Positions 2,519 to 30,736 of a DNA stretch of 64,000 bases are shown here, piece after piece (within the stretch, counting starts at the first letter, position 1; each line of letters opens with the position of its first letter). A program made the position numbers and the translations under genes. The stretch comes from Vicinamibacterales bacterium (GTDB lineage: Bacteria; Acidobacteriota; Vicinamibacteria; Vicinamibacterales; UBA8438). The notes beneath the pieces were generated by a model, which did not search any database, was not told the DNA's origin, and was given only the letters and a program-made list of their open reading frames with translations. Location: the NCBI GenBank assembly GCA_965262925.1, contig CBDHGC010000004.1:145112-209111 (forward strand). Reading direction: 5' to 3'.

Positions 2519-3531
2519 ACAAGGACAAGGAACTGAAGCTGCACGGAACGCCAAAGGCGCTCTACGACCGCGTGCGCGCCGGACTTGAAGGCGAGACGCA
2601 GCGTGCCGGCCTGCCGCTGCACGTCGGCGGCGGCGGCGTGCTCGAAGCGCGCTGGGACCACCGCGAGAGCCTCGACATCGACGTCGTGATCCCGACAGAC
2701 AATCCGGACGCGGCGCGCAGCGCGCTGGACCGCGCGGCCGAGCAGAGCGGTGGATACCGGGTCCAGGGACCCGGATTCGACCGGATCGAGTTCCCGGACC
2801 GGCCGCAGGAAGAGCACGTCGACGTCGGCTTCAGCCAACCGACGCCCGCCAAGGGAGTCGAACACAGCAGCGTCAACGGGCGGCCAGCCGAGGTCCTGAC
2901 CTCGACACAGATCATGACGGCGAAGCTGACCCACCGCGGACTGAACGCGCCGGTGCGCGACGTCTTCGACGTGGCCGTGTGCGCGCGCATCGAACCGCGC
3001 GCTCTGGAGGCGGCCGTCAACGCCCAGGACGCCGAACGCCGGGGCGCAATCACCCGCATGTACGGCGTCATATCAGACGAACTCAAGGACCAAGCAAGCA
3101 GGGAACTCCGGAACGTCCGACCGACCTTCGCCGACATCGTCAAGGACCCGGCCGCTGCAGGCCAGAAGGCCATCGCCGACGCCACCTACCAGCGGGTCCA
3201 GATCCGATGCAAGGGAAAGACGGCGAGCATAACGACCGAGAGCAGGCTGGGGGAGTGGCAACGGACGTGCGGCTCGACAGCCGAGCTCGGGAAAGTGCTC
3301 GAGGAGCGGGGGCTGAAAGGGTTCTTCGAGGCCGAGAGCCAGCCGGTCGGACAATTGCTGGAGAGCGTCCGATCCGGCATGGAGCGCAACGAGACGGTGA
3401 CGATCGTGGACATGGGAGCGAGGCCAGCAGGGGTGCAGATGGCAGCGCCGACCCCAAGGCCAAGAAGCGCCCAGCAGGCGTTCGACGAGAGCCGGCGGCG
3501 CGAGACGCCGCCGCGCAAACGCAATCGGTAA
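2515..3531 (+). CDS. AbiEii/DUF1814-like nucleotidyltransferase (type IV TA / abortive-infection toxin family)
   Basis: N-terminal LHVGGGGVLEARWDHRESLDIDVVIP matches the GGTAL...R.S.DID signature of AbiEii-type NTases. Translationally coupled to the upstream ORF. Paralog at 5332. Confidence 0.7.
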   Translation: MNKDKELKLHGTPKALYDRVRAGLEGETQRAGLPLHVGGGGVLEARWDHRESLDIDVVIPTDNPDAARSALDRAAEQSGGYRVQGPGFDRIEFPDRPQEEHVDVGFSQPTPAKGVEHSSVNGRPAEVLTSTQIMTAKLTHRGLNAPVRDVFDVAVCARIEPRALEAAVNAQDAERRGAITRMYGVISDELKDQASRELRNVRPTFADIVKDPAAAGQKAIADATYQRVQIRCKGKTASITTESRLGEWQRTCGSTAELGKVLEERGLKGFFEAESQPVGQLLESVRSGMERNETVTIVDMGARPAGVQMAAPTPRPRSAQQAFDESRRRETPPRKRNR

Positions 3532-3584
3532 CCCGAATCAACGAAGGGGACGCGGGCGGGCGATGATCGCTTGGCCACAGCGAA

Positions 3585-3675
3585 AGGCAAGCGCCCTGGC
3601 GGGAAGACGTGCGACCAGAATGGCCCCGCCGGAAGGAGGTCATCCGCGCACCCCCGCATGCGCGGGGCAGCTGCG
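3585..3675 (+). repeat. Two CRISPR-repeat-like units directly upstream of the protease pseudogene
   Basis: GGTCATCCGCGCACCCCCGCATGCGCGGGGCAGC (stem start 3652), plus a weaker unit CGCCCTGGCGGGAAGACGTGCGACC (about 3594) 58 nt upstream. Confidence 0.35.
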
Positions 3676-3711
3676 CGAGACCAGGGGCGCCAGGGTCCTT
3701 ACGACCGGGAA

Positions 3712-4072
3712 ATGGTGGACCGAGGACACGGCCTCGAAGGCGAGGTCCGACGGACGACCGTCGACGGAATCGTGGACACCCTGGTGATTCCTGAAGAAGT
3801 CGCAAACGAGCTGGGGCTCCGGCGCAGAGGCACGAGGACGGTCGTGTACGCCGACGAACGCCGCGACCAACGGCCGGTCGGGAGAGGAGTGACGATCGAA
3901 ATCGGGAGCCTTCACCACAGAGAGCGAGTGCATGATCGGACCGGCGGGCAGCGAGGTGCTGATCGGCCAAGTAGTACTGGAGGCGCTGGACCTGATCGCC
4001 GATAGCACGAACCGAACAGTCACACCACGGCATCCCGAAGGACCAGTGCTGGCCCTCCGACGAGCGGGGTGA
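3712..4072 (+). pseudogene. Retropepsin-like (clan AA) aspartic protease, frameshifted
   Basis: N-part VDGIVDTLVIPEEVANELGL...VTIEIGS in frame 1. C-part ECMIGPAGSEVLIGQVVLEALDLIADSTNRTVTP continues in frame 2 from 3926 to the TGA at 4070. The frame change lies near 3905-3925. Confidence 0.65.
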
Positions 4073-4154
4073 GCAGCGACGACAGACGGCACAGCGGGTT
4101 CGCGAGTGGCGGGATCCGGCCCTGGAGCAATCCCCCACGCGGGACGTGCAAACG

Positions 4155-4790
4155 ATGAGCAAGGCGGAGCAAGCGAGGACGCAAAGGACCGCCAGCGAGT
4201 GGCGGCAGCGCAAGCTCGCACGCCGCCTGCGGGACGAGAACCCGCGACGCAACCGGACGCTGAAGGCGGCCACAGCGTTCGAGGACGAGAGGACGACCGG
4301 GGCGCGGCGCGCCGAGTGCGGCATCGAGCGCCAAGTGGACGAGCTTGGGCGAAACAGCCGGACAGTCGAGCGGCGGATCGCGAGCAGCTGCGCCGGTTGG
4401 AGACACGGGCCGAGCGCAGCGGAGTTCTGTGACGCAGTGCGCGCCGAAGGGCCGACACGACGGCAGATGTCTCTGATCGCGATGCGGGTACGCGGGGCGA
4501 GCGACGAAGAGCTGCTCCTGGCGTGGGCCGATGAGGTCTACAGCGACCGGATGCTGGTCGCAGCCATCCACGGCCGGAGCGGCCGATGCCAACCCGCAAC
4601 GCAACGCGGCACTGAACCGCTGGGCGAGAGGACGATGACCGAAGACGATACCGTCGAGGGGCTGCACCGCGTGTCGAGCATCGAGGAAGGCCTGGAGCGT
4701 CTCGTCGACGAGGGGCGAGTGGAAGCCCTGTGCATCGAGCGCGAGCGGGACGAGCCGGCCGCGCAGCTCGAAACGGAGCGGTCAGGATGA
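4155..4790 (+). CDS. Paralog of the 2021 partner family (GWRHGPSAAEFCDAVRA)
   Basis: ORF 4146..4790, with ATG at 4155 preferred. A repeat-like unit GGAGCAATCCCCCACGCGGGACGTGCAAACG (4124..4154) abuts the start. The stop overlaps the next ATG (ATGA at 4787). Confidence 0.55.
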   Translation: MSKAEQARTQRTASEWRQRKLARRLRDENPRRNRTLKAATAFEDERTTGARRAECGIERQVDELGRNSRTVERRIASSCAGWRHGPSAAEFCDAVRAEGPTRRQMSLIAMRVRGASDEELLLAWADEVYSDRMLVAAIHGRSGRCQPATQRGTEPLGERTMTEDDTVEGLHRVSSIEEGLERLVDEGRVEALCIERERDEPAAQLETERSG

Positions 4791-5329
4791 AGGTCCGACA
4801 GCTCCCGTACAGGGACTGCAACTCTCCAGGCATGCTCGAGCCGGACCGCGCCGAGCGCGACGACGAAGGCCCGCTGGAAGACATCGAGCTCGACGACGAC
4901 ACGCCGGCCGCCATCCTCGAGTACGCCCGCGAGCACGGGTACCGGCCGGCCTTCCCCCGGGTGCTGCCGCCCGAGCGCTTCAGCGACGCGCGAGCGACGC
5001 CGGACCAGTGCGCGATGGTCAACGCTCGGACGGGTCCGGACGACACCGGCCCGAAGAGCGAGATCATCCGGATGCGGCTGGCCTGCAGCTGCTCGGGTTG
5101 GAAGCGGCCGCCGACGAGCGAGGAGTTCTACGCCGCCGTGCGCGCCGAAACGCTGGACGAACGCCAGACGGCCATTCTCTACGCCTGGAGCAACGAGGCG
5201 AACGACGTCGAGATTCTGGACGGCTGGACCGAGGATGCCTACACGTTCCGGCAGCTGGCCGCCGCGCTCGAACGGGCCGGGATCGAACGCTGCGCGATCG
5301 CCGAGGCGCTGAACCGTCTGAGCATGTGA
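4787..5329 (+). CDS. Paralog of the 2021 partner family (GWKRPPTSEEFYAAVRA), upstream of the second AbiEii-like NTase
   Basis: Start coupled to the previous stop. The C-terminal half aligns by eye with 2021..2518. Confidence 0.6.
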   Translation: MKVRQLPYRDCNSPGMLEPDRAERDDEGPLEDIELDDDTPAAILEYAREHGYRPAFPRVLPPERFSDARATPDQCAMVNARTGPDDTGPKSEIIRMRLACSCSGWKRPPTSEEFYAAVRAETLDERQTAILYAWSNEANDVEILDGWTEDAYTFRQLAAALERAGIERCAIAEALNRLSM

Positions 5330-9534: not shown

Positions 9535-9690
9535 TAATGTGGAGCTCCACGAGCCTCTTGCAAAAATCGGTAATCGGCCGGGTTTTCTTTGCCGGAAGCC
9601 GCAGGGCGAGGGACGGTCAGTGGGCGGGACGTAGCGTCTGAAGGATGGCGGTAGCGGTCACCGCCGCCGACGAGTCCGAGACGCGGGGGT

Positions 9691-10056
9691 TCATGGGGCC
9701 TCCCGGCCGGTTATGAAGGCAAGCACGCGCGAAGAGAGGCCGCGCATTTCCTTCACGAGCCGCTCCAATTCGCGGTTGTTCTCGATCCACTCCTGGTAGA
9801 GGACAAGTTCGTCTTCGGTGAGCCTCATCCCGACGGTTTTCCCGCGGTCCTTGCGTGTCCAGTAGTGGTAGGGACCGTGCCGGGCGTCCGGGTCGCGGTA
9901 GCAGCGGCAGGTGGTCTTCCCACACGCTATCCGGCGGGTCTGGAGGCTGCCCTGGAAGAGAAACCCAAGCGACTGCAGTTCCGCCTTGAGCGCGTCGTAT
10001 CGCTCCGTGTACTGGCGCATCTGGTCCGCACCGGCCATCGAACCGCAGCTTGACAT
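9691..10056 (-). CDS. IS-borne small Zn-ribbon protein, divergent from the transposase
   Basis: Conserved core MRQYTERYDALKAELQ...CGKTTCRCYRDPDARHGPYHYWT. A paralog (about 70 percent identity by eye) sits at the same position in copy 2 (13600..13977). Confidence 0.6.
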   Translation of the reverse strand: MSSCGSMAGADQMRQYTERYDALKAELQSLGFLFQGSLQTRRIACGKTTCRCYRDPDARHGPYHYWTRKDRGKTVGMRLTEDELVLYQEWIENNRELERLVKEMRGLSSRVLAFITGREAP

Positions 10057-10105
10057 TGCCCCTGCGCGTAAATATACAGTAGCTCGCAGGAGCGGTCAAC
10101 AAGCC

Positions 10106-11245
10106 ATGAATGCCCTGCGCGCCTCGTTCGCCCCCTACTGGGAGTCGATCCAGCGTACGCTGTTCCCGCGGTTGGAGCAGGCGTTGGGTCCACTGACCGA
10201 AAAACAGCAGCAGTTGGTGCAGACCCTGGAGGTCATCCGTATCGAGCGCCTGATTCCCCGGTACTTCCGGGCGCCGGGGCGGCCGCCCAAGGACCGCGCG
10301 GCGATGGCGCGGGCCTTCGTGGCCAAGGCGGTCTACGACCTGCCGTCGACGCGCGCACTGCTGGACCGGTTGGCCGCCGATGTGGCCCTGCGCCGGCTCT
10401 GCGGCTGGGAGCGGAAGTTCGAGGTGCCGAGCGAGTCGGTCTTCTCGCGCGCCTTTGCCGAGTTCGCCGACACGCAGTTGCCCCAGCGCGTGCACGAAGC
10501 GCTGATCCGGGAGACGCACCACGACCGGCTGGTGGGCCACCTCTCGCGCGACTCGACGGCCATCGAGGCCCGTGAGAAGCCGGCCACGAAGGAGAAGCCG
10601 CCCACGCCGCCCAAGCGCAAGCGCGGGCGGCCGAAGAAGGGCGAAGAACGGCCAAAGGTCCTGACACGTCTCGAACGGCAGCCGACCATGAACCTGCCGG
10701 CGATGCTGGACGATCTGCCGACCGCCTGCGATGTCGGCACGAAGAAGAACAGCAAGGGCTACAAGACCACCTGGGTCGGCTACAAGCTGCACATTGACGT
10801 GGCCGACGGCCAGATTCCGATCAGTTGCCTGTTGACGTCCGCCTCCCTGCATGACAGCCAGGCCGCCATTCCGCTGGCGACTCTGTCCGCCGAGCGGACG
10901 ACCAATCTGTATGACCTGATGGACGCCGCCTACGACGCGGAGCAGATCCGGGAGCACAGCCGCTCACTCGGCCACGTCCCGTTGATTGACGTCAACCCTC
11001 GTGGCGACAAGGCCCGGGCGGAGGAACTGCGAACCGAAGCCCGGCGCCTGAAAAATCTCGGCTTCCAGCGTGCCGAGCAGGTTCGCTACAACGAGCGTAC
11101 GGCGGGTGAGCGCGTCAATGGCCGTCTCAAGGACGAGTTCGGTGGTCGCCATGTCCGGGTCCGTGGCACCGCGAAGGTGATGTGCCACTGCATGTTCGGC
11201 ATGTTGGCGCTCACCGCCGACCAGCTCCTGCGTCTGGTGACATAG
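10106..11245 (+). CDS. IS4/IS5-type DDE transposase
   Basis: 379-aa ORF with GYKLHIDVADG, DAAYDA and YNERTAGERVNGRLKDEFG blocks typical of DDE_Tnp_1 transposases. Confidence 0.85.
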   Translation: MNALRASFAPYWESIQRTLFPRLEQALGPLTEKQQQLVQTLEVIRIERLIPRYFRAPGRPPKDRAAMARAFVAKAVYDLPSTRALLDRLAADVALRRLCGWERKFEVPSESVFSRAFAEFADTQLPQRVHEALIRETHHDRLVGHLSRDSTAIEAREKPATKEKPPTPPKRKRGRPKKGEERPKVLTRLERQPTMNLPAMLDDLPTACDVGTKKNSKGYKTTWVGYKLHIDVADGQIPISCLLTSASLHDSQAAIPLATLSAERTTNLYDLMDAAYDAEQIREHSRSLGHVPLIDVNPRGDKARAEELRTEARRLKNLGFQRAEQVRYNERTAGERVNGRLKDEFGGRHVRVRGTAKVMCHCMFGMLALTADQLLRLVT

Positions 11246-11590
11246 CCAACGCGCCGCCGGCAAACGCCCATCCAATCCCGGCGCTCAACCGGCGTCAGTC
11301 ACCCACCGGTGTCCCGACGCTCGGTGGAAAACACGTCGATCCCCTTGTTTTCCGCTTCCTGGCTGCCGCCGGCCCTTCAGGACCAGAACACGGAGTCAAA
11401 ATCCAGAACAATTGGGGTGTTCACCCCGAGAATCGGAGGACTGAGCCGAGCCGCGACCCCAAGAGTTTTGCAAGTGGCTCCCACATTAATGGATTAATGT
11501 GGAGCGATCAGTAATGTGGAGTTGCCGCGGAGAGCGGCGCTCACCCCAAGGCACGGAGAGTCTCCGGACTCCACATTACCGATCGCCTCC

Positions 11591-13459: not shown

Positions 13460-13599
13460 GAGCCTCTTGCAAAACCCTTGGTCGGCCGGGTTTTCCTACC
13501 CGAGGCAGAGGGAACGGACGGTCAGCGGGGTGGGACGCAGCGTTCGTAGGATTAGGATAGCAGCCGTCACCGGCGCCGGGGAACCGGAGACACGGGGTC

Positions 13600-13977
13600 T
13601 CAAGGGACCTCTGGGACCTCCCGGTCGGTTATGAGGGCGAGCGCGCGCGACGAGACGTGGCGCATTTCCCTCACGACCCGTTCCAGTTCGCGGTTGTTCT
13701 CGAGCCACTCCTGGTAGAGGGCGAGTTCGTCTTCGGAGAGCAGCAGGCTGACCGTTTTTCCGCGCACCTTGTGTGTCCAGTAGCGGTACGGGCCGTGACG
13801 CGCGTCCGGGTCGCGGTGGCAGCGGCAGGCAGGCTTCCCGCACGTGAGACGGCGGGTCTGGATACTGCCCTGGCGGACAAACCCGAGCGTTTGCAACTCC
13901 GCCTTGAGCGCATCGTATTGTTCGCTGTACCGGCGCATCGGGTTCCGGCGGCCCATCGGTTCCCTCCTTGACCTCAC
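13600..13977 (-). CDS. IS-borne small Zn-ribbon protein, paralog of 9691..10056
   Basis: MRRYSEQYDALKAELQ...CGKPACRCHRDPDARHGPYRYWT. Confidence 0.6.
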   Translation of the reverse strand: MRSRREPMGRRNPMRRYSEQYDALKAELQTLGFVRQGSIQTRRLTCGKPACRCHRDPDARHGPYRYWTHKVRGKTVSLLLSEDELALYQEWLENNRELERVVREMRHVSSRALALITDREVPEVP

Positions 13978-14020
13978 TCCTACACTACTATATATAGTAG
14001 GCGCTGGGAGCAGTCAAGCC

Positions 14021-14742
14021 ATGCAGAACCTGCGCGCCTCGTTCGCCGCCTACTGGGAGTCAATCCAACAGGGCCTGTTTCCCCGGTTGGAGCAGGTGTT
14101 GGGTTCGCTGACCGAGAAACAGCAGCAGTTGGTGCAGACCCTCGAGGTGATCCGTATCGAGCAGATGATTCCCTCGCGCTTGCGGATGCCGGGCCGCCCC
14201 CGCAAGGACCGCGCGGCGGTGGCGCGCGCCTTCGTCGCCAAGGCGGTCTACGACATGCCGACCACGCGCCTGCTGCTGGACCGGTTGGCCACCGACGTGG
14301 TGCTGCGCCGCATCTGCGGCTGGGAGCGGCGGCGCGAGATGCCAAGCGAGTCGGTCTTCTCTCGCGCCTTCGCCGAATTCGCCCACTCCCAGTTGCCCCA
14401 GCGCGTGCATGAAGCGTTGCTCCGGAAGACGCACGGCGACCGTTTGGTGGGCCATCTGTCCCGAGACTCGACGGCCATCGAGGGGCGCGAGAAGCCGGCC
14501 GCGAAGGAGAAGTCGCCTCCGCCGCCCAAGCGCAAGCGGGGGCGGCCGAAGAAGGGTGAAGAACGGCCCAAGACACGCAAACGCCTCGACCGGCAACCGA
14601 GCATGACCCTGCAGGAGATGCTCGACGACCTGCCGGCCGAGTGCAGTGTGGGCACGAAGAAGAACAGCAAGGGCTACAGGGACACCTGGGTCGGCTACAA
14701 GTTGCACATCGACGTGGCCGACGGCCAGATTCCGGTCAGTTG
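14021..14742 (+). CDS. Transposase of IS copy 2, exon-like part 1
   Basis: Colinear with 10106..10827 of copy 1, up to ...GQIPVS then TG. Confidence 0.75.
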
Positions 14743-16449
14743 GTGCGCCGTGCGAAGGCGCCATTCCTCAGCGGGTGCGAATCCCGCCCGGCAACTGTCG
14801 CTCCAGCCGGTAGCAGTCGGAGCGGACGATGGAGGTAACGACATCGGCTGAAGCACTCTGATGACAAAGGGTCGCCTTGGGCGGCCCAGCGACCATGCGG
14901 GCGGTAGCGCGAGCGAACGCCGAGCAGGCCTCGAAACGATTGATGCGGAAGCCGACTCGCCCAATTGACGAGGAAGGCTGGCATGGGTCGGGAAGCGAGC
15001 GACGCAGACACCGACCGATTCCGCCGGGGTAGTGGCGACGGCACGCATGGAAGAGGGGAATGGACGCAACACGGGAAGCCCTGGCGGTGGCGTGGCACGC
15101 GCCAACCGACAGCCCGCGAGGGTCAGGTCGGGCCGTGCAGGGTGGCGGAGAGGCCCGTAGTGTGCGCCAGGCAGCGCACTGGTCAGGAGGGTTGAAGTCC
15201 CTCCGGCCCCCGGATGAGGGGGGCCGTATCCAAAGGCGGGGGTAATGCCTCGCCGGCCGCAGGTGGCAGGTATGGAGACACCTACACGGGCACGCAGGCG
15301 AAAGCTGGACACAGCCAAGGTGGACCTGGAGCCGCCACGACGGAACTGCGGAGGACAGGGCGCCCACCGTGAGGTGGGGTCCGAAGGGTTTGCGGAGCAG
15401 TACCGGGCCGTAGTCGAGGGGGCGACCCCATGACGAACCGGTCGGCCAAAGGTGGGGCAAGGTCGAGCCTGCACTACAGAGGCGAAGGCGATCTCATCCA
15501 CCCACCGCACCAAGGTGTTTGCGGGCGGCACGGTATGGAAGACCAGTGCGTGACCCTGGGAGACCTCGGCGGGTCCGCGGGTGGCGCCGCGGCAACTGAC
15601 CCTATAAGCGAGAGCGAAGTGGGAAGGGATGCTCGTCGAGGAGTCGGACGGCCGAATAGTACCTGAAGCGCGGTGAAAGCCGCGTGACCGTCAGGGGGCG
15701 GCAACCGAGTGGGTTGGGGAAGGCGGCCGGCGAAGACGGTCGGGACCAGACAGGACGGTGAGATGAGCAAGGGCGCTGAGGTGGACAGTTCCATGAGTGA
15801 AATACCCCAACATCAGCGACCGAGGAGACTTGCCGACTGGCTGAACCCGACGGGCCGGAGGAGGGTTCCACTCTTTGATTCCTCCATCGGTCCTCATCAC
15901 GCGAAGACGTCTTCGTGAAAGCGGTATGCGGGAAAACCGCACGTACCGTTTGAGCGGCGGACGGAGGCCAGCGCCCGCGGGGCGCGCCTCCTCCGACCCG
16001 ACACCGGGGAAACCGGGTAATGCCGGCGGAGGGAAGGGACCTCAGGTGGACAGCGATGGCGAAAGGGAGCAGGCTCACGGGAGTGGCCGACGGCCTAGTA
16101 CCCCGGAGATGAGCAGAAATGCCGGACGTCATCACATGCACAAGCGAAGGGGACGACCCGAACGGTCGCTGTCGCCAGGGCGTCAACAGGCCTGACGACG
16201 CACCGGCCGGCCTGCGCAAGGGTGCGAGCTTGGTGCCACGGCTCGCGAGACCCGCCCGCTGGTCGTGACCGGGAACTCGTGTGCGAGCCGCATGATTCCA
16301 CTGGAGAGCCCGGTGCCGGAAATCGGCACGCCGGGTTCGGAGAGCGGGGGGAGGAAACGTGTCCACGGGAATCGGCCTGCGGCCCGGCTGCGAAAGCACC
16401 GGATGTGCCACCGACCCCCTACCGGCTACGCGCCTCCCCTCGACTCTAC
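14743..16449 (+). ncRNA. ORF-less group II intron-like insert (1707 nt) with two canonical domain V hairpins, possibly nested or tandem introns
   Basis: Starts GTGCG and ends CTAC. DV-like AAGCGGTATGCGGGAAAACCGCACGTACCGTTT at 15919..15951 and GAGCCCGGTGCCGGAAATCGGCACGCCGGGTTC at 16306..16338 (AGC triad, 2-nt bulge, GAAA loop). No RT ORF. Removing it restores a 1140-nt ORF, the same length as copy 1. Confidence 0.6.
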
Positions 16450-16867
16450 CATCCTGACGTCCGCCTCGCTGCACGACAGCCAGGCCGCCGTTCCACTGGC
16501 CACCCTGTCGGCCCAGCGGGTGGACAATCTGTATGACCTGATGGATGCCGCCTACGACGCGGTGCAGATCCGCGAGCACAGCCGCGCACTCGGCCACGTC
16601 CCGCTGATCGATATCAACCCCCGCCGTGACACTGCGCTGGCCGAAGAACTGCAGACCGAAGCCCGGCGCCTGAAGCGTCTCGGCTTGCAGCTTCCCGAAC
16701 AGGTTCGGTACAACGAACGCACGGCGGGTGAGCGCGTCAATGGCCGACTCAAGGACGAGTTCGGCGGGCGCCACGTCCGAGTCCGCGGCAACGCGAAGGT
16801 GATGTGCCACTGCATGTTCGGCGTGCTGGCGCTCACCGCCGACCAGCTCCTGCGGCTGGTGACGTAA
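16450..16867 (+). CDS. Transposase of IS copy 2, exon-like part 2
   Basis: C then ILTSASLHDSQAAVPL... to the stop. Colinear with 10828..11245 of copy 1. Confidence 0.75.
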
Positions 16868-17806
16868 ACCAACGCCTCGCCGGCCAACGCGCATCCCCTT
16901 CCGGTCGCCCGACAGGCGTCAGTCACCAACCGGTGTCTCCAACGCCCGGTGGGAAAACCCTCGAACTCCCTGATTTCCGCCTCTTGGGTCGCCGCCGGTC
17001 CTCCCGCCCCGCATTCTCGGTCGGGATCCAGGCAAAACGATGTTCACCAGAAGAACTTGTGCTCCGAGCCGAGCTACGCCAAGAGTTTTGCAAGCGGCTC
17101 TGGCGTCTGGCGAATGTCTGGTCAGGCTGCTGCACACGTCCACGAACGGTTACATCCTCCAGCCATACAATCCGGCCCACCACGCGCGGTTGGTAGAGCA
17201 AGGAGAGATCGAAGCGATGCACGTAATCGTGTACTCGCGGAGCATCGGCCCGGACGACCACGCGATGTCGATGTCGGTTTGATGGCTACGGAGAAGATCC
17301 TCTGGACCCACGCATTGCGGACGCAGGAGGGAGAGCAAATGCGGGGACGGGCAAAGACGCCGGTCAGGTCTTGTGCTTGTGGTTCTTGAGGGACACTGAC
17401 TGGGAGGAAAGGATGGGGACCGGGCCGACGTAGTTCGCAAGACCCTGCGGCGTTTTGCCGCGGTTGAGATCCGGTTGCTGCTCGAGGAAGCCGAGCGTAT
17501 CAAGGACCACAAGCTGGTCGAGCACCTGCACGACGTGCTGCCTGGAGCTGCCGGCTGCCCGGCGCGTGCTGCACCAAACCTGCACTAAACCCTACGGCGC
17601 TTCGCCGGGGCGTTGATCGAGGAGCTGTCCACCGGTCGGGTGGCGTGCGGCTGGTCGGCCGCGGCAGTGGGTCTGGTTCGACGTTTCCCGTCGCTGGGTC
17701 TGGGCCGGTCCTACGGCACGGGGTTGCCGGCGACGGACCCTCCGAGGCGATCTTTTGCCGCCGGCTGGCGAAGGGGGGTTCGAGCGGCGGCGGGTTCCGC
17801 GCGGCG

Positions 17807-21229: not shown

Positions 21230-21258
21230 TTGACTTGCGTCTCAAGCGGTAATATGTT
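21230..21258 (+). promoter_or_regulatory. Candidate sigma70-type promoter for 21267..21599
   Basis: TTGACT (21230), 17-nt spacer, TATGTT (21253). An AT-rich island in GC-rich DNA, 9 nt before the ATG. Confidence 0.3.
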
Positions 21259-21266
21259 TATGCCTC

Positions 21267-21599
21267 ATGGCGCGGGCCACCAAGGCCGACAAGGCGCGCT
21301 TGCTCAACGCCGCGTACCGGCTGCTCGGGCAGCAGATGGAACGCGCCGAGGCGGCCCGCCATCTCGGTCGCGAGTTTGCATTGTCCCGCCGGCAAGCCTA
21401 CCGCTATCTCCAGGAAGCAGCCGGGCTGAGCGCTCCGCTGCCGGCGGTCGAGCCGACCGTCGCGATCACCTTCAAGCTGCCGGTCAGCACCGTACGCGCA
21501 ATCCGCGCCTATGCCCGCCAGAGCGGACTCTCCCTCGGACAAGTCGTCACCCAGGCGGTGACGGCGTTCCTGGACACCTTCCGTCAGCGACGTGGGTGA
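21267..21599 (+). CDS. Small DNA-binding regulator (HTH N-terminus, RHH-like C-terminus) upstream of the serine recombinase
   Basis: 110-aa ORF with LSRRQAYRYLQEA (HTH-like) and ITFKLPVSTVRAIRAYARQSGLSLGQVV (CopG/RHH-like). Confidence 0.55.
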   Translation: MARATKADKARLLNAAYRLLGQQMERAEAARHLGREFALSRRQAYRYLQEAAGLSAPLPAVEPTVAITFKLPVSTVRAIRAYARQSGLSLGQVVTQAVTAFLDTFRQRRG

Positions 21600-21742
21600 A
21601 CGACAACCACGGAATGCTCTGCGGCAGGTGCAGCTCGATTGCACGTTCGATCGACTTCGCGACAGCAAGATCGCCCAGGCGTACACGTTGTTGGTGCCGG
21701 CCCGTATGCGTCCGGTTGCAGCTTATGGAATGGAGCGTCCAC

Positions 21743-23395
21743 ATGCAGATGGCGGCGATTTACACGCGCGTGTCCTCGAACCAGCAGCGCGAAGCGCACA
21801 CGATCGCGAGCCAGACGGCGGCGCTGGTCGATTGGGCCGCGACGCTCGATCTGGAGGCGCCCCAGCAATGGATCTTCGAAGACGAAGGCTATAGCGGGGC
21901 GACTCTCGAACGGCCGGGATTGGAACAGGTGCGCGACCTCGCAGCCGCCGGCGACATCCAGGTGGTGCTCGTGCACAGTCCGGATCGGCTGAGTCGGAAG
22001 TACGCCTACCAGGTGCTGTTGATCGAAGAGTTCGGACGTCACGGGGTCGAGACCCGGTTCCTCAACGGCCCGTCGAACGCTACCGCCGAGGATCAGCTGC
22101 TGGTGCAGTTTCAGGGCATGATCGCCGAGTACGAACGCGCTCAGATTCTCGAACGGTCGCGTCGTGGCAAGCGCCACCGCGCGCGAGCCGGTGAGATCAG
22201 TGTCCTGGGCGGCGCTCCCTATGGTTATCGCTACATTCGCAAGCGTGAGGACAATCCCGCAGCGTACATCGTCATCGACGCCGAAGCGCGCGTTGTCCGC
22301 GACGTCTACGAGCACTACACCGTCACGGGCTGGAGCATCGCGGCGATCACCCGCTGGCTCAACGAGCAAGGCGTGCCCACGCGGAAGGTCGGCACCCGTT
22401 GGGAACGCTCCACCGTATGGGCGATGCTGCGCAACCCGGCCTATCGCGGCACGGCGTGCTTCGGCAAGACGCAACGAGCCCACCGGCAGCGCGTGACGCG
22501 CCCACTACGGCTGCGCGGCGGCGCCGCCAGTCGCGACAGTGCGAACCACGAACGGCCGCGCGAGGAATGGATCGAGATCCCGGTGCCGGTGATCGTGGAC
22601 GAGTCGACCTTCGCGCGCGCACAGGAACTGCTGCACGAGAACAAGGTGCACGCCCGGCGGCGCACGCTCGAACCGAGCCTCGTACAGGGGCTCGTGAGTT
22701 GCCAGAAATGTGGCTACGCGCTCTCTCGCGCGTCGGCCCGGTCGAGCGCCCGGAAGATTCACTACTACCGCTGCATCGGATCCGACGGGTGGCGGCACCT
22801 CGGCGGCCCCCGGTGCGACACGCGCCCCGTGCGGCAGGACCTGTTGGACGAGGTCGTCTGGACCGAAGTGATACGGTTGCTTGAGGAACCGGCACTGATC
22901 CAACAGGAACTGGACCGCCGGCTGGCCGCCGCTCAGGCTGCTGACCCCGCGAAGACCCGCACGCAGGCGGTGGAGCGGGACCTCGCGCGAGTCGGGAAGA
23001 GCATGGAACGGCTGCTCACCGCCTACCAGGAGGATCTGCTGTCGCTTGAGCAGCTACGCGAGCGGATGCCGTTGCTGCGTCAACGCGAGCAGACGCTACG
23101 CCACGAGTTGAACGCTTTGGTCGAGCAGACTCGCGAGCGCGCCGCGCATCTGCGCCTGGCCGAGACCCTGTCAGCGTTTCTCACGCGCCTGCGCGCCGCG
23201 GCCGCGGCGCTCGACATCGTGGAGCGGCAGCGAATCGTGCGCCTCGTCGTCAAAGAGGTCCTCGTCAATGACGACACGATCGTGATCCGCCACTGCATTC
23301 CCGTGCCCTCGGGACCACCGCCAACGAACGGTGGCGGACCGAACAAGGACGCCGACAACGCCGCGGACCCTCGAAGTTACCTTTTGCGTTCGGGG
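21743..23395 (+). pseudogene. Large serine recombinase, extreme 3-prime end replaced by a group II intron remnant
   Basis: AAIYTRVSSNQQ catalytic-Ser motif, resolvase domain, recombinase domain, Zn-ribbon CQKCGY...YYRC and a coiled coil. The frame runs into unrelated sequence after ...SYLLRSG. Confidence 0.85.
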
Positions 23396-24065
23396 AGTAG
23401 CGAGCCCGCTCCTGGCCAATATCTTCTTGCACCTCGCGTTCGACGACTGGATGCGGTCGACGCACCCGGACGTTCCGTTCGAGAGGTACGCGGACGATAT
23501 CGTCGCGCACTGTCGGACGGAGACGCAGGCGCAGCAGGTCCTGTCGCACATCAAACGTCGTCTGGCGCAATGCCGGCTGGACGTCCATCCGGAGAAGACG
23601 CACATCGTCTACTGTAAGGATGACGACCGGCCGGGGCAGTATCCCACGGAGCAGTTCACCTTCTTGGGATACACGTTTCGCTCGCGTCGGTCGAAGAATC
23701 GGTGGGGTAAGTACTTCATCAACTTCGCGCCGGCAGTGAGTAATGCGGCAGCGACGCGGATGCGACAAGCGCTGCGACGTCGGCACCTCCCTCGGCGCTG
23801 CGACAAGGCCATCGACGACCTGGCCCGCATGTGGAATCCTGTCCTTCGAGGGTGGATTCAATACTACGGCCGTTTCTACAAATCGGCCCTGTATCCGGTC
23901 TTTCGCCACTTCAATGGCCTGTTGGTTCGATGGGCCATGCGGAAATACAAGAGGCTACGGCGACATCGCCGTCGAGCCAGTCACTGGCTCGGTGGCCTTG
24001 CTCGTCGCGAGCCCCGGCTGTTCGCCCATTGGCATCTGCTGGGGGTGACGCCGGCGGCTGGATGA
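23385..24065 (+). pseudogene. Group II intron reverse transcriptase/maturase, 5-prime truncated
   Basis: SPLLANIFLH, RYADDIV (the YADD box) and maturase X-domain RGWIQYYGRFY. Confidence 0.8.
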
Positions 24066-24068
24066 TGG

Positions 24069-24145
24069 GAGCTGTATGAGCGGAGACGTTCACGTACAGT
24101 TCTGCGAGCGCCCGGGGGTGAGATTCCCCCGGGCGACTCACCTCG
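24069..24145 (+). ncRNA. Group II intron domains V-VI (3-prime end of the truncated intron)
   Basis: 34-nt DV GAGCTGTATGAGCGGAGACGTTCACGTACAGTTC right after the RT stop, followed by a GC hairpin with a bulged A. Confidence 0.6.
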
Positions 24146-24515: not shown

Positions 24516-25781
24516 GTGGCGGACTTCGAGGCCCTCGAACAGGCGGTCCGTCACCAAGCCCTCGACATCGCCGCGCAGTGGATGGCGCAGCGCTTCAACG
24601 CAGACGATTCCGACCATTCGGGTTCGACCACAGCATGCGCCTGCGGCCGGCGGGCGCGCTACGCCGGCCGTCGCCCGAAGACGTTCACCACACTGTTGGG
24701 GCCGGTTACCCTGCAACGCGCCTACTACCACTGCGACGCCTGCCGCAGCGGGGTGTGTCCGCGCGACCAGGCCCTGGGTCTGCAAGGTAGCTCGCTGTCA
24801 CCGGCCATCACGCGGCTGGTGGGACTGACGGCGGCCGAGGGCAGCTTCGCCAAGGCGAGCGAGTGGTTGACCGCCCTGGCCGGGGTGAATGTCGAGACCC
24901 GGCAGGTCGAGCGCTGTGCCGAGGCGCTCGGACGCGACATCGCTGACGACGAGCGCTCGGTCACCGAGCAGCCCGCCGCGGCGCCCGCGCCGACGATGTA
25001 CCTGGGGCTGGACGGCACCGGCGTGCCGGTGCGCCCAACCGAGGTCGAAGGACGCCGCGGCAAGCAGCCCGACGGCTCGGCCAAGACCCGCGAGGTCAAG
25101 CTGGCCACCGTGTGGACGGCCGAAGGGCGCGACACACAAGGCCGCCCCGTGCGGGACCGCGGGTCGGTCAGCTACAACGCCGCAGTCGAAAGCGCGGCCA
25201 GCCGCGACACCGACCCGCAGCCGGCCGCCTTCGCACAACGGGCCTATCGCGAGGCAATACGGCGCGGTTTCGACTCTGCAGCCCAGCGCGTCGTCATCGG
25301 CGACGGCGCCGCGTGGATCTGGAACCTGGCCGCCGAGCACTTTCCCGGCGCCATCGAGATCGTTGATATCTACCACGCCAAGCAGCACCTGTGCGACGTC
25401 GCCAAGGCCATCTACGGCCCCGGAACCGACCTGGCCGACCGGTGGGCCAGGGACCGGCGTGCCGAACTGGACGCCGGCCGGCTGTGCGCCGTCGTCGCCG
25501 CGCTGCGCATCCATGTCGAGACCACGCCCGAGGCGCGAAAGTGCATTCACTACCTGTTCGGGAACCGCCACCGGATGCGCTATCCGCAGTTCCGCGCCAG
25601 GGGCCTGTGCGTCTCGTCGGGCGTCGTCGAGGCCGGATGCAAGCAGATCGGCGACCGGCTCAAGCGCGCCGGCATGCGCTGGACCGTCGCCGGGGCCAAC
25701 GCCATCATCGCGCTGCGCTGCTGCATCCTCAGCGGACGCTTCGAGGACTTCTGGGAGCGACGAGCCGCAAATGCCGCCTGA
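24516..25781 (+). CDS. ISKra4-family DDE transposase
   Basis: 421-aa ORF. Zn-ribbon CACG...YYHCDAC, LGLDGTGVP, IGDGAAWIW, VDIYHAKQHL and GVVEAGCKQI blocks. Confidence 0.7.
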   Translation: MADFEALEQAVRHQALDIAAQWMAQRFNADDSDHSGSTTACACGRRARYAGRRPKTFTTLLGPVTLQRAYYHCDACRSGVCPRDQALGLQGSSLSPAITRLVGLTAAEGSFAKASEWLTALAGVNVETRQVERCAEALGRDIADDERSVTEQPAAAPAPTMYLGLDGTGVPVRPTEVEGRRGKQPDGSAKTREVKLATVWTAEGRDTQGRPVRDRGSVSYNAAVESAASRDTDPQPAAFAQRAYREAIRRGFDSAAQRVVIGDGAAWIWNLAAEHFPGAIEIVDIYHAKQHLCDVAKAIYGPGTDLADRWARDRRAELDAGRLCAVVAALRIHVETTPEARKCIHYLFGNRHRMRYPQFRARGLCVSSGVVEAGCKQIGDRLKRAGMRWTVAGANAIIALRCCILSGRFEDFWERRAANAA

Positions 25782-25807
25782 CGCTCATCTCACAATGATG
25801 TCGTGCA

Positions 25808-26191
25808 CCCCTCACCTCGTCGTTGGTTGCCAACGCAAGGAGGATGCGGAACAGTTTCTCCGCGACCTCAAGGAGCGCCTGGGCCAATTCGCGCTTGATC
25901 TGCACCCCGACAAGACGCGCCTCATCGAGTTCGGCCGATTCGCGATGGTGGACCGCCGAGCACGGGGGGCACGCCGACCGGAGACCTTCGATTTCCTCGG
26001 ATTCACGCACTACTGCCGGAAGACGAGGAACGGCGGCTTTGGTTTGGGGCGTAAACCGATTGCGAAGCGGGTCAAGCGAACCTTGAAACGGCTCAAGGAG
26101 CGACTTCGCGCGCGGATGCACGAAGACGTCCACGATACGGCGCAATGGTTGGGGAAGGTGGTCAACGGCTGGCTGAACTACTATGCCGTAC
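25808..26191 (+). pseudogene. Second group II intron RT/maturase fragment, part 1 (cut on both sides)
   Basis: ...LDLHPDKTRLIEFGRF...FDFLGFTHY...GWLNYYAV. Continues in frame at 30471 once the IS nest and one target-duplication copy are removed. Confidence 0.75.
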
Positions 26192-27062
26192 CACTACTGT
26201 CCCACATTTTCAGCGCCACAGCAGTATCTGAGGGTCTGGGGAACCCGGTGGCGAGGGCGTCGTGAACAGCTCCACCAGTGGACGGCGGTCGAACAGGTTG
26301 AGCTGGAGAACTCGTAGCATCTGGTGCAGGCTCCAGCTCAGTCGCAGGACGAACTTCAGGTAGGCCAACAGCAGGTACATACACGTCGCCACCCACAGTT
26401 GCGACAGAACCGCGTTCTTCGTCCGCCCGACGAAGCGTTTCACCTTCAGATGCTGCTTGATCCACTTGAAAAACAGCTCGATTTGCCACCGCGACTTGTA
26501 CAGGTTGGCAATCGTCTTCCCAACGGGCGCATTCCCGATTTCCCGGAGCAGTGTGTAGGCAAAGATGGACTGTGAGGCTGGGGGAGGTTGAGCCGGTCTT
26601 CGGACAGACGGGGAGGGTGGTACTGGACATTACGGCTCGGACTGCCCATGATGGTGCGTTGAAATGGACAAGAGCGCCATCGACACCCCGAGCCGCGAGG
26701 TCGATCTTGGCAACATTCCCGTCCACCTGCGCACTGCCCTCCGGCGGGCGCTGGAGTTTGAGGCGCGTGCTCCAGCGCCCAGGTCGGCAGAGGAAGCGGA
26801 GCAGTGCGAAGAGCAGCTGCGGGCCATCGCGGACGAGTTCTTCGGCGCCCTCCTCACCCCCGTGCTGCAACGCGCGGTGCGCTCCGCCGCGGTTGGCGAC
26901 GCGGCGAGCGCCCTCGTGCGCCACCTGCCCCGGCGGATGCGGAGCGACGGCCTGGAGACCGTCAACGTTCGCACCTCCCGGGGCACGACGGTGCCGGTCA
27001 CGACGCCGTACTACCGCGAGAAACACGCCCGTCGGGCGAAGCGGAGGCCGGGACTCTACCCC

Positions 27063-28459
27063 ATAGGCGCTAACTTGTTAAGGCCACATGGTCCTCCGGC
27101 AGCTCAGTTCAGCCGAAGTACGTGGAGAGTTGCGGCTGTCGGCGACGTGGCGGCTCCGCCAGCTCGCCGGAGATCGTTCGCCAGTCGCTGATCATGCGCG
27201 CCAGCGGGAGCGGCGGTTCGATGGCGCGCGTGACCTGGTTGAGCACGAACTTGAAGTCACGCCACGCGCTCGGGGGGCGCCGGCGCCGGCACGTCGTAGC
27301 CCCAGGGGGAAATCGCGCGGGCGTGGTGGATCAGCTTCTCCACCAGCAGCGCCACGAACAGTTTCCCGTAGAGCCACGCCTTGGCGCTGTCGTCGTCGTA
27401 CTTCGGCACGTGCCCCAACTGGGCCAGCGACTTGAAGCGCTTGAACACCAATTCGACCTGCCAGCGCAGGCGATACCACTCCAGCACGTCCGCGGCGGAA
27501 AAGGGTGGCTCGGGAAAGGTCGTGAAGACGATCACGTACTCAGCAAAGCGCAGCGTGGCCGGTTGCACCTGGTTGCCCTTGCGGGCGGCGTCTCGGCGGA
27601 CTTTCAGGTGCGCCAAGCGGATGGCTTCCGCCGACTTGCGGAGCACGCAGACCCGGCCCGCAATCTTGCCGGCCGGGCCGCCATCGTCGCCCGGGACCGC
27701 GACCGTGATCGCCCAGGACCGGCCGGCGCCCGGACGCGTGACCGACCCCACCGCCGCAAGCAGGTCGAACGGCCGCCCGGCCGTCGTGCACAGCGGCAGC
27801 GACCCCGTGTTGACACGCACAATCAGCCGCCCGCCCGCGTCGACCACGTGGCGAATGCCCCGGGCCGTCGAATAGCCGCGGTCGGCCAGCACATGGTCGC
27901 CGGCGCGGATCGGGAACTGCGCCAACGATTCTCCCGTGCCCGGCCCCTCGGTCCCCGTCAGCTTGAAGAAGTCGCACGCCAGCGACGGCAGGCCCACGCT
28001 GTAGTGCAGGCGCCACAGCGACCCGCTCGGGCCCGGTTCCTTCACCGTCGTCGCATCCACGGCCCGGACCTGGAACGCGCCTCCGGGGATGACCGCCAGA
28101 CCCTGCTCCTCGAACAGGCGGACACACAGCGCGTGCAACCAACCCTTTGGATTTCTTCAGCCGCTTCAACAGCGCCACGTCGGACAGGTCCGCCAGATGC
28201 GCCTGCCGGGCCCGAACCACCGTTTCCCGCAACGAGTGTCCGCAGCCGAGGTGCAGCAGGAGGGTCCGCAGGAGGTTGTCGACCGTCTTGTCCTTGCGCA
28301 GCCCCTTCAACGCCCCGGTGTCCTGCGCCAACTCGCGCCAGTCCTGAGGGAAGAACGACACCAGCACATCCCAGTCCTCGTCCACCGTGCCGGCCTCCGT
28401 GTCATGCATCCACATGCCAGGATACGCCGGCCATGCCGCGAAAACAAGTTAGCGCCTAT
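27063..28459 (-). mobile_element. IS4-family insertion sequence nested inside the ISKra4-like transposase gene
   Basis: Perfect 17-bp inverted repeats ATAGGCGCTAACTTGTT. Flanking direct repeat GGGACTCTACCCC, giving a 9-13 bp duplication depending on the exact end. Confidence 0.85.
27257..28415 (-). pseudogene. IS4-family transposase, frameshifted near 28140
   Basis: N-part to ...LKRLKKSKG, then WLHALCVRLFEEQG... in another frame. The C-terminus has YRLRWQVELVFKRFKS (the Y-R-E-K signature). Confidence 0.8.
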
Positions 28460-30664: not shown

Positions 30665-30736
30665 GAGCCGTATGCGTTAGCGCGCACGTACGGATCTGTG
30701 CGGGGGGACCGGGGCAACCCGGCTCCCTACCGCAAC
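30665..30736 (+). ncRNA. Group II intron domains V-VI of the second intron remnant
   Basis: DV GAGCCGTATGCGTTAGCGCGCACGTACGGATC immediately after the RT stop, followed by a GC hairpin with a bulged A. The end near 30736 is approximate. Confidence 0.6.

Follow-up and report, generated by a model that had tools for sequence, protein, structure and literature searches.

The closest precedent for the locus analysed here is the group of TeI3/TeI4 twintrons of Thermosynechococcus elongatus, in which ORF-less group II introns derive from an ancestor encoding a reverse transcriptase (RT), through deletions in domain IV (DIV) that left N- and C-terminal ORF remnants (Mohr, Ghanem and Lambowitz 2010, PMC2882425). 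Their inner intron is inserted within DIV, where it separates the first two ATGs of the RT ORF; these introns insert site-specifically into other group II introns, some are located in insertion sequence (IS) elements and their RTs mobilise in trans (PMC2882425). Multi-level nests are also described in Methanosarcina acetivorans, where introns home into the ORFs of related introns and where, in the account given in PMC4424553, coding exons do not surround the nests (Dai and Zimmerly 2003, via PMC4424553). The T.e.I7/I8 twintron of Trichodesmium erythraeum interrupts a conserved cellular gene; its inner intron lies in domain I, a functional domain of the outer one, which calls for sequential splicing, and this order has been demonstrated; both introns encode proteins (PMC4649490). 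Bacterial twintrons are rare, with one known inside a protein-coding gene as of 2015 (PMC4649490), and so are ORF-less bacterial group II introns (PMC4424553).

The window (i.e. the whole 64,000-nt stretch of DNA that was analysed, from a Vicinamibacterales bacterium of the Acidobacteriota) holds a locus that combines a twintron with ORF-less introns inside a transposase gene. We consider it very likely (probability about 0.88) that this locus is a three-level nest: an IS carries an 866-nt ORF-less outer intron in its transposase gene, in the sense orientation, and domain III of this intron carries an 841-nt ORF-less inner intron (hereafter IN). The locus resembles TeI3/TeI4 in its ORF-less DIV-deletion derivatives, intron-in-intron site specificity, near-identical inner versus diverged outer copies, IS location and putative mobilisation by trans-acting RTs. 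By contrast, (i) the inner intron here interrupts a catalytic-effector domain, domain III, in its internal loop; (ii) both partners are ORF-less and the entire nest lies within the transposase reading frame; and (iii) the host belongs to the Vicinamibacterales, and the IN lineage occupies at least three host-intron types in many soil metagenomes.

As in M. acetivorans, ORF-less and RT-encoding introns home repeatedly into group II introns, and two related loci (L110 and L119) show 3–4 levels; the target here, however, is an RNA-structural motif of domain III, and the outermost exon is a gene. The locus shares with T.e.I7/I8 the placement of a bacterial twintron in a protein-coding gene and of the inner intron in a functional domain of the outer one, but both introns are ORF-less and the host gene encodes a transposase. 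Homing of a sense-orientation group II intron in an IS transposase gene also has a counterpart in RmInt1 of Sinorhizobium meliloti, an endonuclease-less, RT-encoding intron with a natural homing site inside the transposase gene of ISRm2011-2. RmInt1 is a single RT-encoding intron, whereas the present locus is a nested ORF-less pair.

The host insertion sequence

The window contains two copies of the IS, with the following features:

9551-11480, forward strand: IS copy 1, intact, with its transposase gene at 10106-11245
13460-17100, forward strand: IS copy 2, 1934 bp plus the 1707-nt twintron (ends from alignment with copy 1)
13460-13481 and 17079-17100: terminal inverted repeats of IS copy 2, 22 bp, GAGCCNCTTGCAAAACYCTTGG
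13600-13977, reverse strand: DUF6788 gene inside IS copy 2 (Pfam)
14021-14742, forward strand: transposase 5' exon, which ends in the 8-nt IBS1 of the outer intron, GTCAGTTG (14735-14742)
16450-16867, forward strand: transposase 3' exon, stop codon included

The element is an insertion sequence with a DDE transposase (Pfam DDE_Tnp_1 and DUF772), terminal inverted repeats and copies in several different flanks. Independent insertions with differing flanks back its ends: L116 and L117 support those of copy 1, and L118 the left one of copy 2. The copy-1 protein is present on at least nine contigs. The name IS1182/IS5-like is approximate because the NCBIfam IS1182 and IS5 models match the transposase below their cut-offs. 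L118 contains the same intron-bearing IS, 99.94% identical, at a second genomic site.

Copies 1 and 2 are colinear at about 81% identity apart from 14743-16449, a 1707-nt insert that begins with GTGCG, finishes with CTAC and falls exactly between copy-1 positions 10827 and 10828. When 14742 is joined to 16450, an unbroken 379-aa ORF of copy-1 length results (junction SCIL versus SCLL). A preliminary description had claimed that this insert is the only break in colinearity and that its removal restores a transposase ORF of copy-1 length; the alignment bears out both points. The equivalent homing site in copy 1 (GATCAGTTG/CCTG, the slash marking the insertion point here and below) is unoccupied. 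Since this near-identical site is empty, homing of the outer intron is not saturating and may have ceased.

An ORF-less intron within an ORF-less intron

The outer intron belongs to group II, is ORF-less and measures 866 nt in two parts, 14743-15161 and 16003-16449, with the following features:

14743-15161, forward strand: outer intron, 5' part (intron positions 1-419)
14748-15074, forward strand: outer D1 (Rfam RF02003; consensus fold)
14934-14944, forward strand: candidate EBS2 internal loop
14962-14969, forward strand: EBS1 loop CAATTGAC, covarying with the 5' exon
15078-15143, forward strand: outer D2
15144-15151, forward strand: invariant J2/3 motif GGCGGAGA
15150-15161, forward strand: outer D3, 5' strand
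16003-16449, forward strand: outer intron, 3' part, 92-94% identical to uninterrupted ORF-less copies
16003-16043, forward strand: outer D3, 3' strand
16044-16303, forward strand: outer D4, ORF-less
16306-16338, forward strand: outer DV (RF00029)
16341-16447, forward strand: outer DVI, long, with a bulged A at 16443, 7 nt from the 3' end (MFE fold)

Its assignment as a group II intron relies on GUGYG and AY at the 5' and 3' ends, a DV above threshold, covariation in D1-D3 and EBS1-IBS1 pairing. The Rfam scan proposed in the preliminary description matched the D1 motif beyond the hairpins (RF02003 at 14769-14912, 80.3 bits, cut-off 49, E = 6e-16), and RF00029 matches the outer DV/DVI at 16304-16420 (46.5 bits, cut-off 40). 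In the consensus fold of 23 relatives, 66 of 123 pairs show compensatory changes, and the IN site falls in the D3 internal loop of this structure; the window copy has one C.A mismatch in its D3 stem (position 412 with 456). MFE folding, applied either to the complete insert or to the outer intron after splicing, gave implausible long-range pairs and was replaced by alignment-based folds.

The EBS1 loop CAATTGAC forms 8 bp with the IS exon GTCAGTTG, including one G.U, in line with the earlier proposal to look for such pairing. Among 62 copies, the mean contiguous pairing is 5.6 bp with the intron's own exon versus 3.2 bp with the exons of others. The outer intron arrived at the IS site through pairing between its EBS1 loop and the terminal 8 nt of the 5' exon. 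A second candidate EBS1, CAACTG at 14792, was ruled out: its sequence does not vary among the copies, even where their exons differ.

The outer family includes RT-encoding members of about 2 kb (L021 and others), with which the window copy shares the DVI end CGACTCTAC, and a proliferated lineage of ORF-less deletion derivatives; copies without the inner intron occur in other Vicinamibacterales genomes. The best plasmid matches of its RT have 50-57% identity, lie in other taxa and are not decisive for a named intron class. The outer D1 is RF02003-like and the inner D1 weakly RF02001-like; the RTs lack an endonuclease domain and match TIGR04416.

IN occupies the remainder of the insert and has these features:

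15162-16002, forward strand: IN, ORF-less, 841 nt (bounds from empty sites and other copies)
15167-15559, forward strand: IN D1
15473-15477, forward strand: IN EBS1 loop ACTAC; retargeting covaries with the exon
15564-15641, forward strand: IN D2
15650-15728, forward strand: IN D3
15730-15916, forward strand: IN D4; contains an RT-ORF remnant (15763-15867) and, at 15874/15875, the deletion junction
15919-15951, forward strand: IN DV (Rfam 39.4 bits)
about 15955-15997, forward strand: IN DVI, with a predicted branch A at 15996

IN is a six-domain group II intron with GUGCG and AC at its ends and EBS1-IBS1 pairing (ACUAC with GUAGU, 5 bp). The second GTGCGCC noted earlier at 15162 is its real 5' end. 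The family consensus fold of D1-D3 (58 sequences) contains 161 pairs, of which 93 are compensatory; D4-D6 were assigned from the MFE fold. RF00029 matches the IN DV/DVI at 15917-16002 with 39.4 bits, 0.6 bit under the cut-off of 40, and a related copy in L119 (hereafter IN') with 44.1 bits. Both DV hairpins had been described as having an AGC triad, a 2-nt bulge and a GAAA loop; the triad and bulge stand (AC in the outer intron, CG in IN), but both loops are 5 nt long (GAAAU and GAAAA, respectively) rather than tetraloops. No convincing covarying partner was found for an EBS2 of IN. A perfect 9-nt complement between IN (CAACTGACC, 15593-15601) and the IS exon (GGTCAGTTG) was rejected as evidence of IS targeting by IN or by an intron nested in another way: the 9-mer also occurs in IN copies whose outer introns occupy unrelated exons (L106 and L110), its counterpart in L033 reads CAACCGACC, and it is homologous to a conserved D2 motif, CAACYGAC, also found at 15103 in the outer intron.

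IN is inserted into the outer intron at GUAGU/ACC, within the domain III internal loop. In six relatives (L002, L040, L049, L055, L093 and L003) the outer sequence 14743-15161 is joined directly to 16003-16449, and IN occurs elsewhere as a discrete unit of 840-841 nt at the same D3 site (L033, L106 and twice in L110). The five copies have identical ends; they are 99.4-99.5% identical (L033 96.7%) within outer introns that are 87-91% identical (L033 99%). These outer introns occupy unrelated exons and have differing EBS1 loops, except that the window and L033 have the twintron at the same IS site. IN is found in intron M as well, an intron with an RT that shares only 28% identity with the RT of the outer family. 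An nhmmer search of all loci with an IN profile returned nothing beyond the five known copies, and a metagenome scan with the IN 5' DNA pattern gave no matches. The insert had been proposed to hold two ORF-less introns, nested or tandem; the empty-site relatives and the discrete IN unit exclude the tandem arrangement, and the nested one is a twintron in the usual sense, i.e. the outer intron is contiguous without the inner one in relatives and the inner one is discrete elsewhere.

As previously claimed, the insert lacks an RT ORF: its ORFs match no Pfam family, and tblastn finds no RT. The sole vestige is an N-terminal remnant (15763-15867) that corresponds to the first 35 codons of the RT gene (E = 3e-14). 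The RT genes of the window are all truncated (23331-24065; 25792-26193 plus 30449-30661), also in agreement with the preliminary description. Its suggested search for a cognate full-length intron yielded RT-encoding relatives of both the outer intron (L021 and others) and IN (L119). L119, a metagenome contig, has the same IS/outer allele with an RT-encoding inner form. Its outer positions 183-419, the 3' part of its outer intron and the right-hand part of its IS all match the window at 100% identity. At junction 15874/15875 it contains a 1182-nt segment that is absent from the window IN, and its inner RT, of which the window IN keeps the first 35 codons, has YADD and domain X. The L119 locus has 4x long-read coverage; its RT shows a single frameshift, and the 3' junction of IN' a 5-nt gap. 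IN is a D4-deletion derivative of an RT-encoding intron of about 2.0 kb. With its DIV deletion, RT remnant and cognate form, it would be an ORF-less derivative of the TeI3 type. The window IN also carries a private extra T at 15866. A further candidate for an RT-encoding IN, L066, was discarded because it matches the first 31 nt of IN and then continues into unrelated DNA.

Probable homing of the IN lineage to domain III

We then focused on the RT-encoding relatives of IN. Of the 64 with a readable 5' flank, 53 occupy this same place in domain III of another group II intron, as judged by a J2/3-like motif in the flank. At target positions -4 to -1, UAGU is found in 54-60 of 64, and position +1 is A in 63 of 69. 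The host introns are confirmed as group II by Rfam and represent at least three D1 types (D1D4-3, D1D4-4 and D1D4-6). Pairing follows a site-specific EBS1/IBS1 rule (ACUAU with RUAGU), with matching double changes at other targets (L143, L163, L167, L180, L181 and L156). These data indicate that the IN lineage homes, in other group II introns, to the base of domain III, where it targets a conserved RUAGU/A internal loop. The lineage is spread over many soil metagenomes and, in L119, IN' lies inside IN. We lean towards the view that IN belongs to a widespread group II lineage parasitising other group II introns, with RUAGU/A as its natural homing site in several unrelated host lineages and in its own kind. 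The literature searched contains no description of a domain-III-homing group II lineage.

Alternative readings and significance

In Clostridium tetani, C.te.I1 has repeated DV/DVI modules that provide alternative 3' splice sites. The present insert holds two DV/DVI modules as well as two GTGCG motifs, and these could likewise reflect a single group II intron with duplicated DV/DVI, or tandem introns, with alternative 3' splice sites. This is very improbable: the segment 15162-16002 has its own full, covariation-supported D1-D3; each DV/DVI has its own D1-D4 instead of several sharing one; the inner unit is discrete in five places and its flanks are contiguous in six uninterrupted relatives; and, as read from the sequence, a splice that removes 14743-16002 would leave behind 447 nt running into a stop codon. 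Spread of the twintron as a composite unit, rather than independent invasion of resident outer introns by IN, would fit the twintron at the same IS site in the window and L033 and the intron-bearing IS at a second locus in L118. We consider it improbable, given copies of IN that are 99.4-99.5% identical inside outer introns only 87-91% identical, in unrelated exons and with different EBS1 loops, its presence in intron M with so distant an RT, and the occupation of D3 by IN-family introns in three host types. The near-identity of IN (99.4%) inside diverged hosts is indirect support for mobilisation in trans by an RT.

The locus could also be a dead relic, in which neither intron splices any longer and this copy of the IS is a pseudogene whose mobility, if any, would come from the transposase of other copies. 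Neither intron contains an RT gene and none is intact in the window, which is a graveyard of nested, truncated mobile elements, and the C.A mismatch in outer D3 is consistent with a mosaic origin. We nevertheless regard this as unlikely, though to be taken seriously, because the spliced transposase ORF is intact; every helix conserved in the families is retained, as are EBS1/IBS1, the two DVs and the bulged A of each DVI; IN and its copies in other genomes share 99.4% identity; and at a second site (L118) the intron-bearing IS recurs with 99.94% identity.

Under the three-level nest, IN probably splices first and rebuilds outer domain III, an order suggested by its position in the D3 internal loop; the outer intron would then splice and rejoin the transposase reading frame. 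Domain III might still form around IN, and strict sequential splicing would then be unneeded. Both steps probably require a trans-acting maturase/RT, provided by relatives that encode an RT and lie elsewhere in the genome, and both introns would rely on the same proteins for movement. Transposase expression is likely to depend on splicing because the intron lies between segments of the catalytic domain. Expression of the transposase would thus depend on outer splicing, this on inner splicing and this on a trans-acting maturase, a chain that could couple three kinds of mobile elements.

If the IN lineage does parasitise other group II introns, IN, by splitting a catalytic-effector domain, would tie the splicing and mobility of its host intron to its own splicing, and its lineage has spawned non-autonomous ORF-less derivatives that are still spreading. 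With a whole RT lineage at one domain III motif, a conserved ribozyme sequence would be a renewable, harmless safe harbour for retroelements, and the ACUAU with RUAGU rule makes this idea directly testable. The locus may also offer a natural system of introns accumulating in introns with shared dependence on splicing proteins, which bears on models of spliceosome origin.

Insertion sequence and its intron-bearing copy

The window contains two copies of an insertion sequence (IS), as follows:

9551..11480, IS copy 1, with 22-bp inverted repeats GAGCCNCTTGCAAAACYCTTGG at both ends
13460..17100, IS copy 2, with the same 22-bp repeats at both ends

These ends are corroborated by independent insertions with differing flanks in public assemblies (L116, L117 and L118). 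The IS carries a minus-strand DUF6788 gene and a gene for a 379-aa DDE transposase, which matches Pfam DUF772 and DDE_Tnp_1 and, with scores under their cut-offs, the NCBIfam IS1182/IS5 models. The DUF6788 gene (13600-13977 and its copy-1 equivalent; zinc-ribbon-like, 113 bits) is divergent from the transposase gene and is an integral part of the IS, present in every copy seen.

The two copies share ∼81% identity and are colinear throughout except for a 1707-nt insert in copy 2 (14743..16449), which falls precisely at copy-1 10827|10828. Its removal leaves a stop-free 379-aa ORF, with the split point after ...HIDVADGQIPVSC and before ILTSASLHDSQ... in the DDE domain. This bears out the preliminary description, which had the insert splitting the transposase gene exactly in frame, with GTGCG at its 5' end and CTAC at its 3' end. 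IS copy 1 has the same IBS1 (i.e. CAGTTG, the 5' exon end) and a similar 3' exon at 10827|10828, yet is intron-free.

Rfam covariance models recognize a group II D1 motif (RF02003) at 14769-14912 (80.3 bits, cut-off 49), DV/DVI at 16304-16420 (46.5 bits, cut-off 40) and at 15917-16002 (39.4 bits, slightly under the cut-off of 40), and further partial D1 motifs at 14928-15030 and 15363-15549. No ORF of the insert matches a Pfam family, which agrees with the earlier remark that it lacks a reverse transcriptase (RT) ORF. Two introns, nested or tandem, had been proposed. The outer 5' motif was scanned against one genome per species, yielding 115 loci (many of them MAGs of the Vicinamibacterales, Acidobacteriota), and architecture was read from BLAST comparison of the insert with these loci. 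In six of them (L002, L040, L049, L055, L093 and L003), 14743-15161 is directly joined to 16003-16449, forming 865-nt ORF-less introns with 88-94% identity, while 15162-16002 is a discrete 840-841-nt unit with identical ends in L033, L106 and L110 (twice). The uninterrupted outer copies and the separate inner unit rule out a tandem arrangement and define an inner intron (IN; 15162..16002) nested in an outer intron of 866 nt (14743..15161 + 16003..16449). The observation is thereby confirmed, and its original interpretation is supported.

L118 (ENA ERZ25068966 ctg562443) also encodes the exact 276-aa product (5' exon plus read-through) found in the window. Its positions 3440-5000 are 99.94% identical to 13460-15020 and represent a copy-2-type IS with the outer intron, within which the contig stops; the IS neighbours are PQQ and ankyrin-repeat protein genes, unlike the upstream genes of the window. 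This identity, together with the different upstream genes, shows the intron-bearing IS to be present at two or more genomic sites, reached either by movement of the IS with its intron aboard or by homing of the intron into another, identical IS.

Structure, targeting and relatives of the outer intron

From 23 non-redundant relatives, a consensus fold with 123 pairs was obtained, 66 of them with compensatory changes. The outer intron is organized as follows:

14748-15074, D1 (consensus fold)
15078-15143, D2 (consensus fold)
15144-15151, J2/3 motif GGCGGAGA, invariant
15150-15161 + 16003-16043, D3 (consensus fold)
16044-16303, D4, ORF-less
16306-16338, DV
16341-16447, DVI, of unusual length; A16443, 7 nt from the end, is bulged

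The long DVI and the end CGACTCTAC are common to RT-encoding relatives (L021, L023, L078, L035, L001 and others), which supply the cognate full-length form of the outer intron. They are ∼1.97 kb long (e.g. L021 4518-6481) and show homology over 14743-15161 + 16003-16054, followed by an RT gene whose product matches TIGR04416 at 290 bits and is without an endonuclease domain.

EBS1 of the outer intron is a variable hairpin loop (14962-14969). Its sequence, CAATTGAC, pairs with the whole 8-nt end of the IS exon (GTCAGTTG), one of the pairs being G.U. Among 62 distinct copies, contiguous EBS1 pairing averages 5.6 bp with a copy's own exon against 3.2 bp with the exons of others. This indicates that the outer family varied its targets through EBS1 change and that the window copy fits this IS site.

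The same IS site is occupied by an outer intron in L033, another Vicinamibacterales genome; the first 419 nt of this intron show 99% identity, and it contains IN too and encodes an RT 81-92% identical to that of L021. The window outer intron resembles L033 in its 5' part (99%) and the ORF-less lineage in its 3' part (92-94%), and the D3 stem pair 15154/16039 (intron positions 412/456) reads C.A in the window where L033-type relatives have C-G and ORF-less-type relatives U-A. These differing affinities and the C.A mismatch suggest that the window outer intron may be a mosaic from recombination between intron copies.

Other arrangements were seen among relatives. In L093 (1-1153), the 3' end of one outer-type intron (...CTCTAC) adjoins the next GTGCG in a head-to-tail tandem, and an IN-family intron in L147 (∼3399) is likewise immediately followed by another 5' end. 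Outer-type introns of L043 and L073 contain other sequence straight after the invariant GGCGGAGAGG (∼position 410), one running on into a GGUGAAAGUCC-type hairpin; this insertion at the J2/3-D3 border may be another kind of intron.

Origin and spread of the inner intron

IN is organized as follows:

15167-15559, D1
15564-15641, D2
15650-15728, D3
15730-15916, D4
15919-15951, DV, with AGC triad, CG bulge and GAAAA loop
ending at 16002, DVI, with A15996 7 nt from the end

It lies between outer U419 and A420 (...GGCCCGUAGU|ACCGGGG...), on the 5' strand of the internal loop right above the basal stem of outer domain III. IN copies are mutually 99.4-99.5% identical (L033: 96.7%), whereas the outer introns hosting them share only 87-91% identity (L033: 99%) and have unrelated exons and different EBS1 loops. 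Near-identical IN copies in diverged hosts are the signature of recent independent invasions. L110 has IN in another kind of intron as well, M, at the homologous D3 site; the RT of M is only 28% identical to the outer-family RT.

CAACTGACC (15593-15601, IN D2) perfectly complements, over 9 nt, the IS 5' exon end GGTCAGTTG, a match that exceeds the true EBS1 pairing of 8 bp. IN copies with unrelated exons keep this sequence too, and it was therefore rejected as a chance match, although it could rival EBS1 for the exon in this transcript before IN removal.

ENA contig ERZ25071132:ctg617462 (L119) likewise encodes the 200-aa product of 16265-16867. It shares 100% identity with the window across outer positions 183-419, the entire 3' part of the outer intron and the right-hand part of the IS. 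The inner intron of L119, the cognate RT-encoding form of IN, has an extra 1182-nt segment at window 15874|15875 that completes an RT/maturase ORF (start MSKGAEVDSSMSERP..., YADD, domain X motif); the ORF holds one frameshift, which may be a read error (coverage 4x). The window IN keeps RT codons 1-35 (15763-15867; 88.6% identity, E = 3e-14) as well as the final dozen. Judging from these remnants and the L119 segment, IN is a DIV deletion derivative of an RT-encoding intron. L119 also has a 752-nt ORF-less IN-like intron (90.8% identity, DV 44.1 bits) inside IN's own domain III, at GAGUAGU| (corresponding to window 15660|15661).

With the L119 RT as query, JGI metagenome contigs yielded 581 relatives. 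Among these, the 79 best loci have full-length RTs (67-77% identity) in introns of ∼2.0 kb, whose ends were placed using the IN 5' and 3' parts. A J2/3-like motif (AGUCRGA or GGCGGA) lies 6-13 nt upstream in 53 of the 64 readable 5' flanks, positions -4 to -1 are U, A, G and U in 56, 58, 54 and 60 of the 64, and position +1 is A in 63/69, followed by (C/G)C..GAAGC. The IN-family insertion site is the D3 site that IN occupies in the window. Rfam confirms group II introns as the hosts, with three types seen (D1D4-3, D1D4-4 and D1D4-6), D1 motifs ∼100-400 nt upstream of the insertion and DV downstream wherever the contig reaches far enough. Fifty-eight family members with 75-84% identity to IN give a consensus fold of 161 pairs, 93 of them compensatory, and the window IN retains every helix.

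The IN-family EBS1 loop is GCACUAUGG (window: ACUAC), with RUAGU as partner. Members with other targets show matching double changes (L143 GUACU/AGUAC, L163 AUAUU/AAUAU, L167 AUCUC/GAGAU, L180 CUAUU/AAUAG, L181 AAAUU/AAUUU and L156 GAAGU/ACUUC). The IN-family introns of L167, L169, L180, L181 and L156 lie outside domain III, with EBS1 changes that fit their new 5' exons; these are natural retargeting events.

Deeper nests and remnants also occur. L110 (1470-5928, minus strand) is a four-intron nest, in which an outer-type intron has the 1.9-kb RT-encoding M in D1 (∼position 165), one IN in M's D3 and, in its own D3, another IN; a comparable insertion of 3.5 kb occupies that D1 position in L003. 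L119 (732-4836), the same allele as the window, is a four-level nest (IS > ORF-less outer > RT-encoding IN > 752-nt ORF-less IN-like intron), with outer D1 broken at position 183 beside a TnpB (OrfB_IS605) gene. In the window, a 5'-truncated group II intron (23331-24142) right after a large serine recombinase gene (21230-23617) retains the RT C-terminal part, the maturase domain and a DV (24067-24142, 55.7 bits) that recurs with 99% identity within the outer-intron RT gene of L033. Positions 24516-25781 hold a UPF0236 transposase-like ORF. An M-like intron is represented by its 3' part (RT residues 383-579 + DV), in two halves (25792-26196 and 30449-30738) ∼4.3 kb apart; the intervening 26197-30461 contains a repeat (26525-27062 + 28460-29514; intact copy at 47375-48959) interrupted by an IS of 1.4 kb (27063-28459) that has a DDE transposase.

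Splicing, mobility and comparison with known systems

Our results establish the anatomy of the twintron, the base-pairing rules of both homing sites, the origin of IN through RT-gene deletion and the existence of RT-encoding relatives of both introns. We propose that IN would splice first, as needed to rebuild outer domain III, and that the outer intron would splice next, restoring the transposase frame. Both steps would need maturases supplied in trans, and both introns would be mobile only with RTs supplied in trans.

RmInt1 in ISRm2011-2 is an intron within an IS transposase gene. The nearest precedent for the nest is Thermosynechococcus elongatus, in which ORF-less TeI3 introns insert into TeI4 introns and TeI3h, inner copies are identical and outer ones diverged, IS elements harbour some of the introns and "driver" RTs work in trans (PMC2882425). 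The DIV deletion origin of IN matches that described for the ORF-less TeI3 introns (PMC2882425). Methanosarcina acetivorans has nested introns homing into intron ORFs (summary in PMC4424553), and sequential splicing is proven for a Trichodesmium twintron in a protein-coding gene (PMC4649490). The window twintron differs from these cases in its target, which is domain III and neither DIV nor an ORF, in the lack of an ORF in either partner, in the location of the nest within a transposase reading frame, and in the breadth of the inner lineage, which uses one and the same structural site across several host-intron types. The literature searched, which included only some of the key papers, yielded no account of an intron lineage that homes to domain III.
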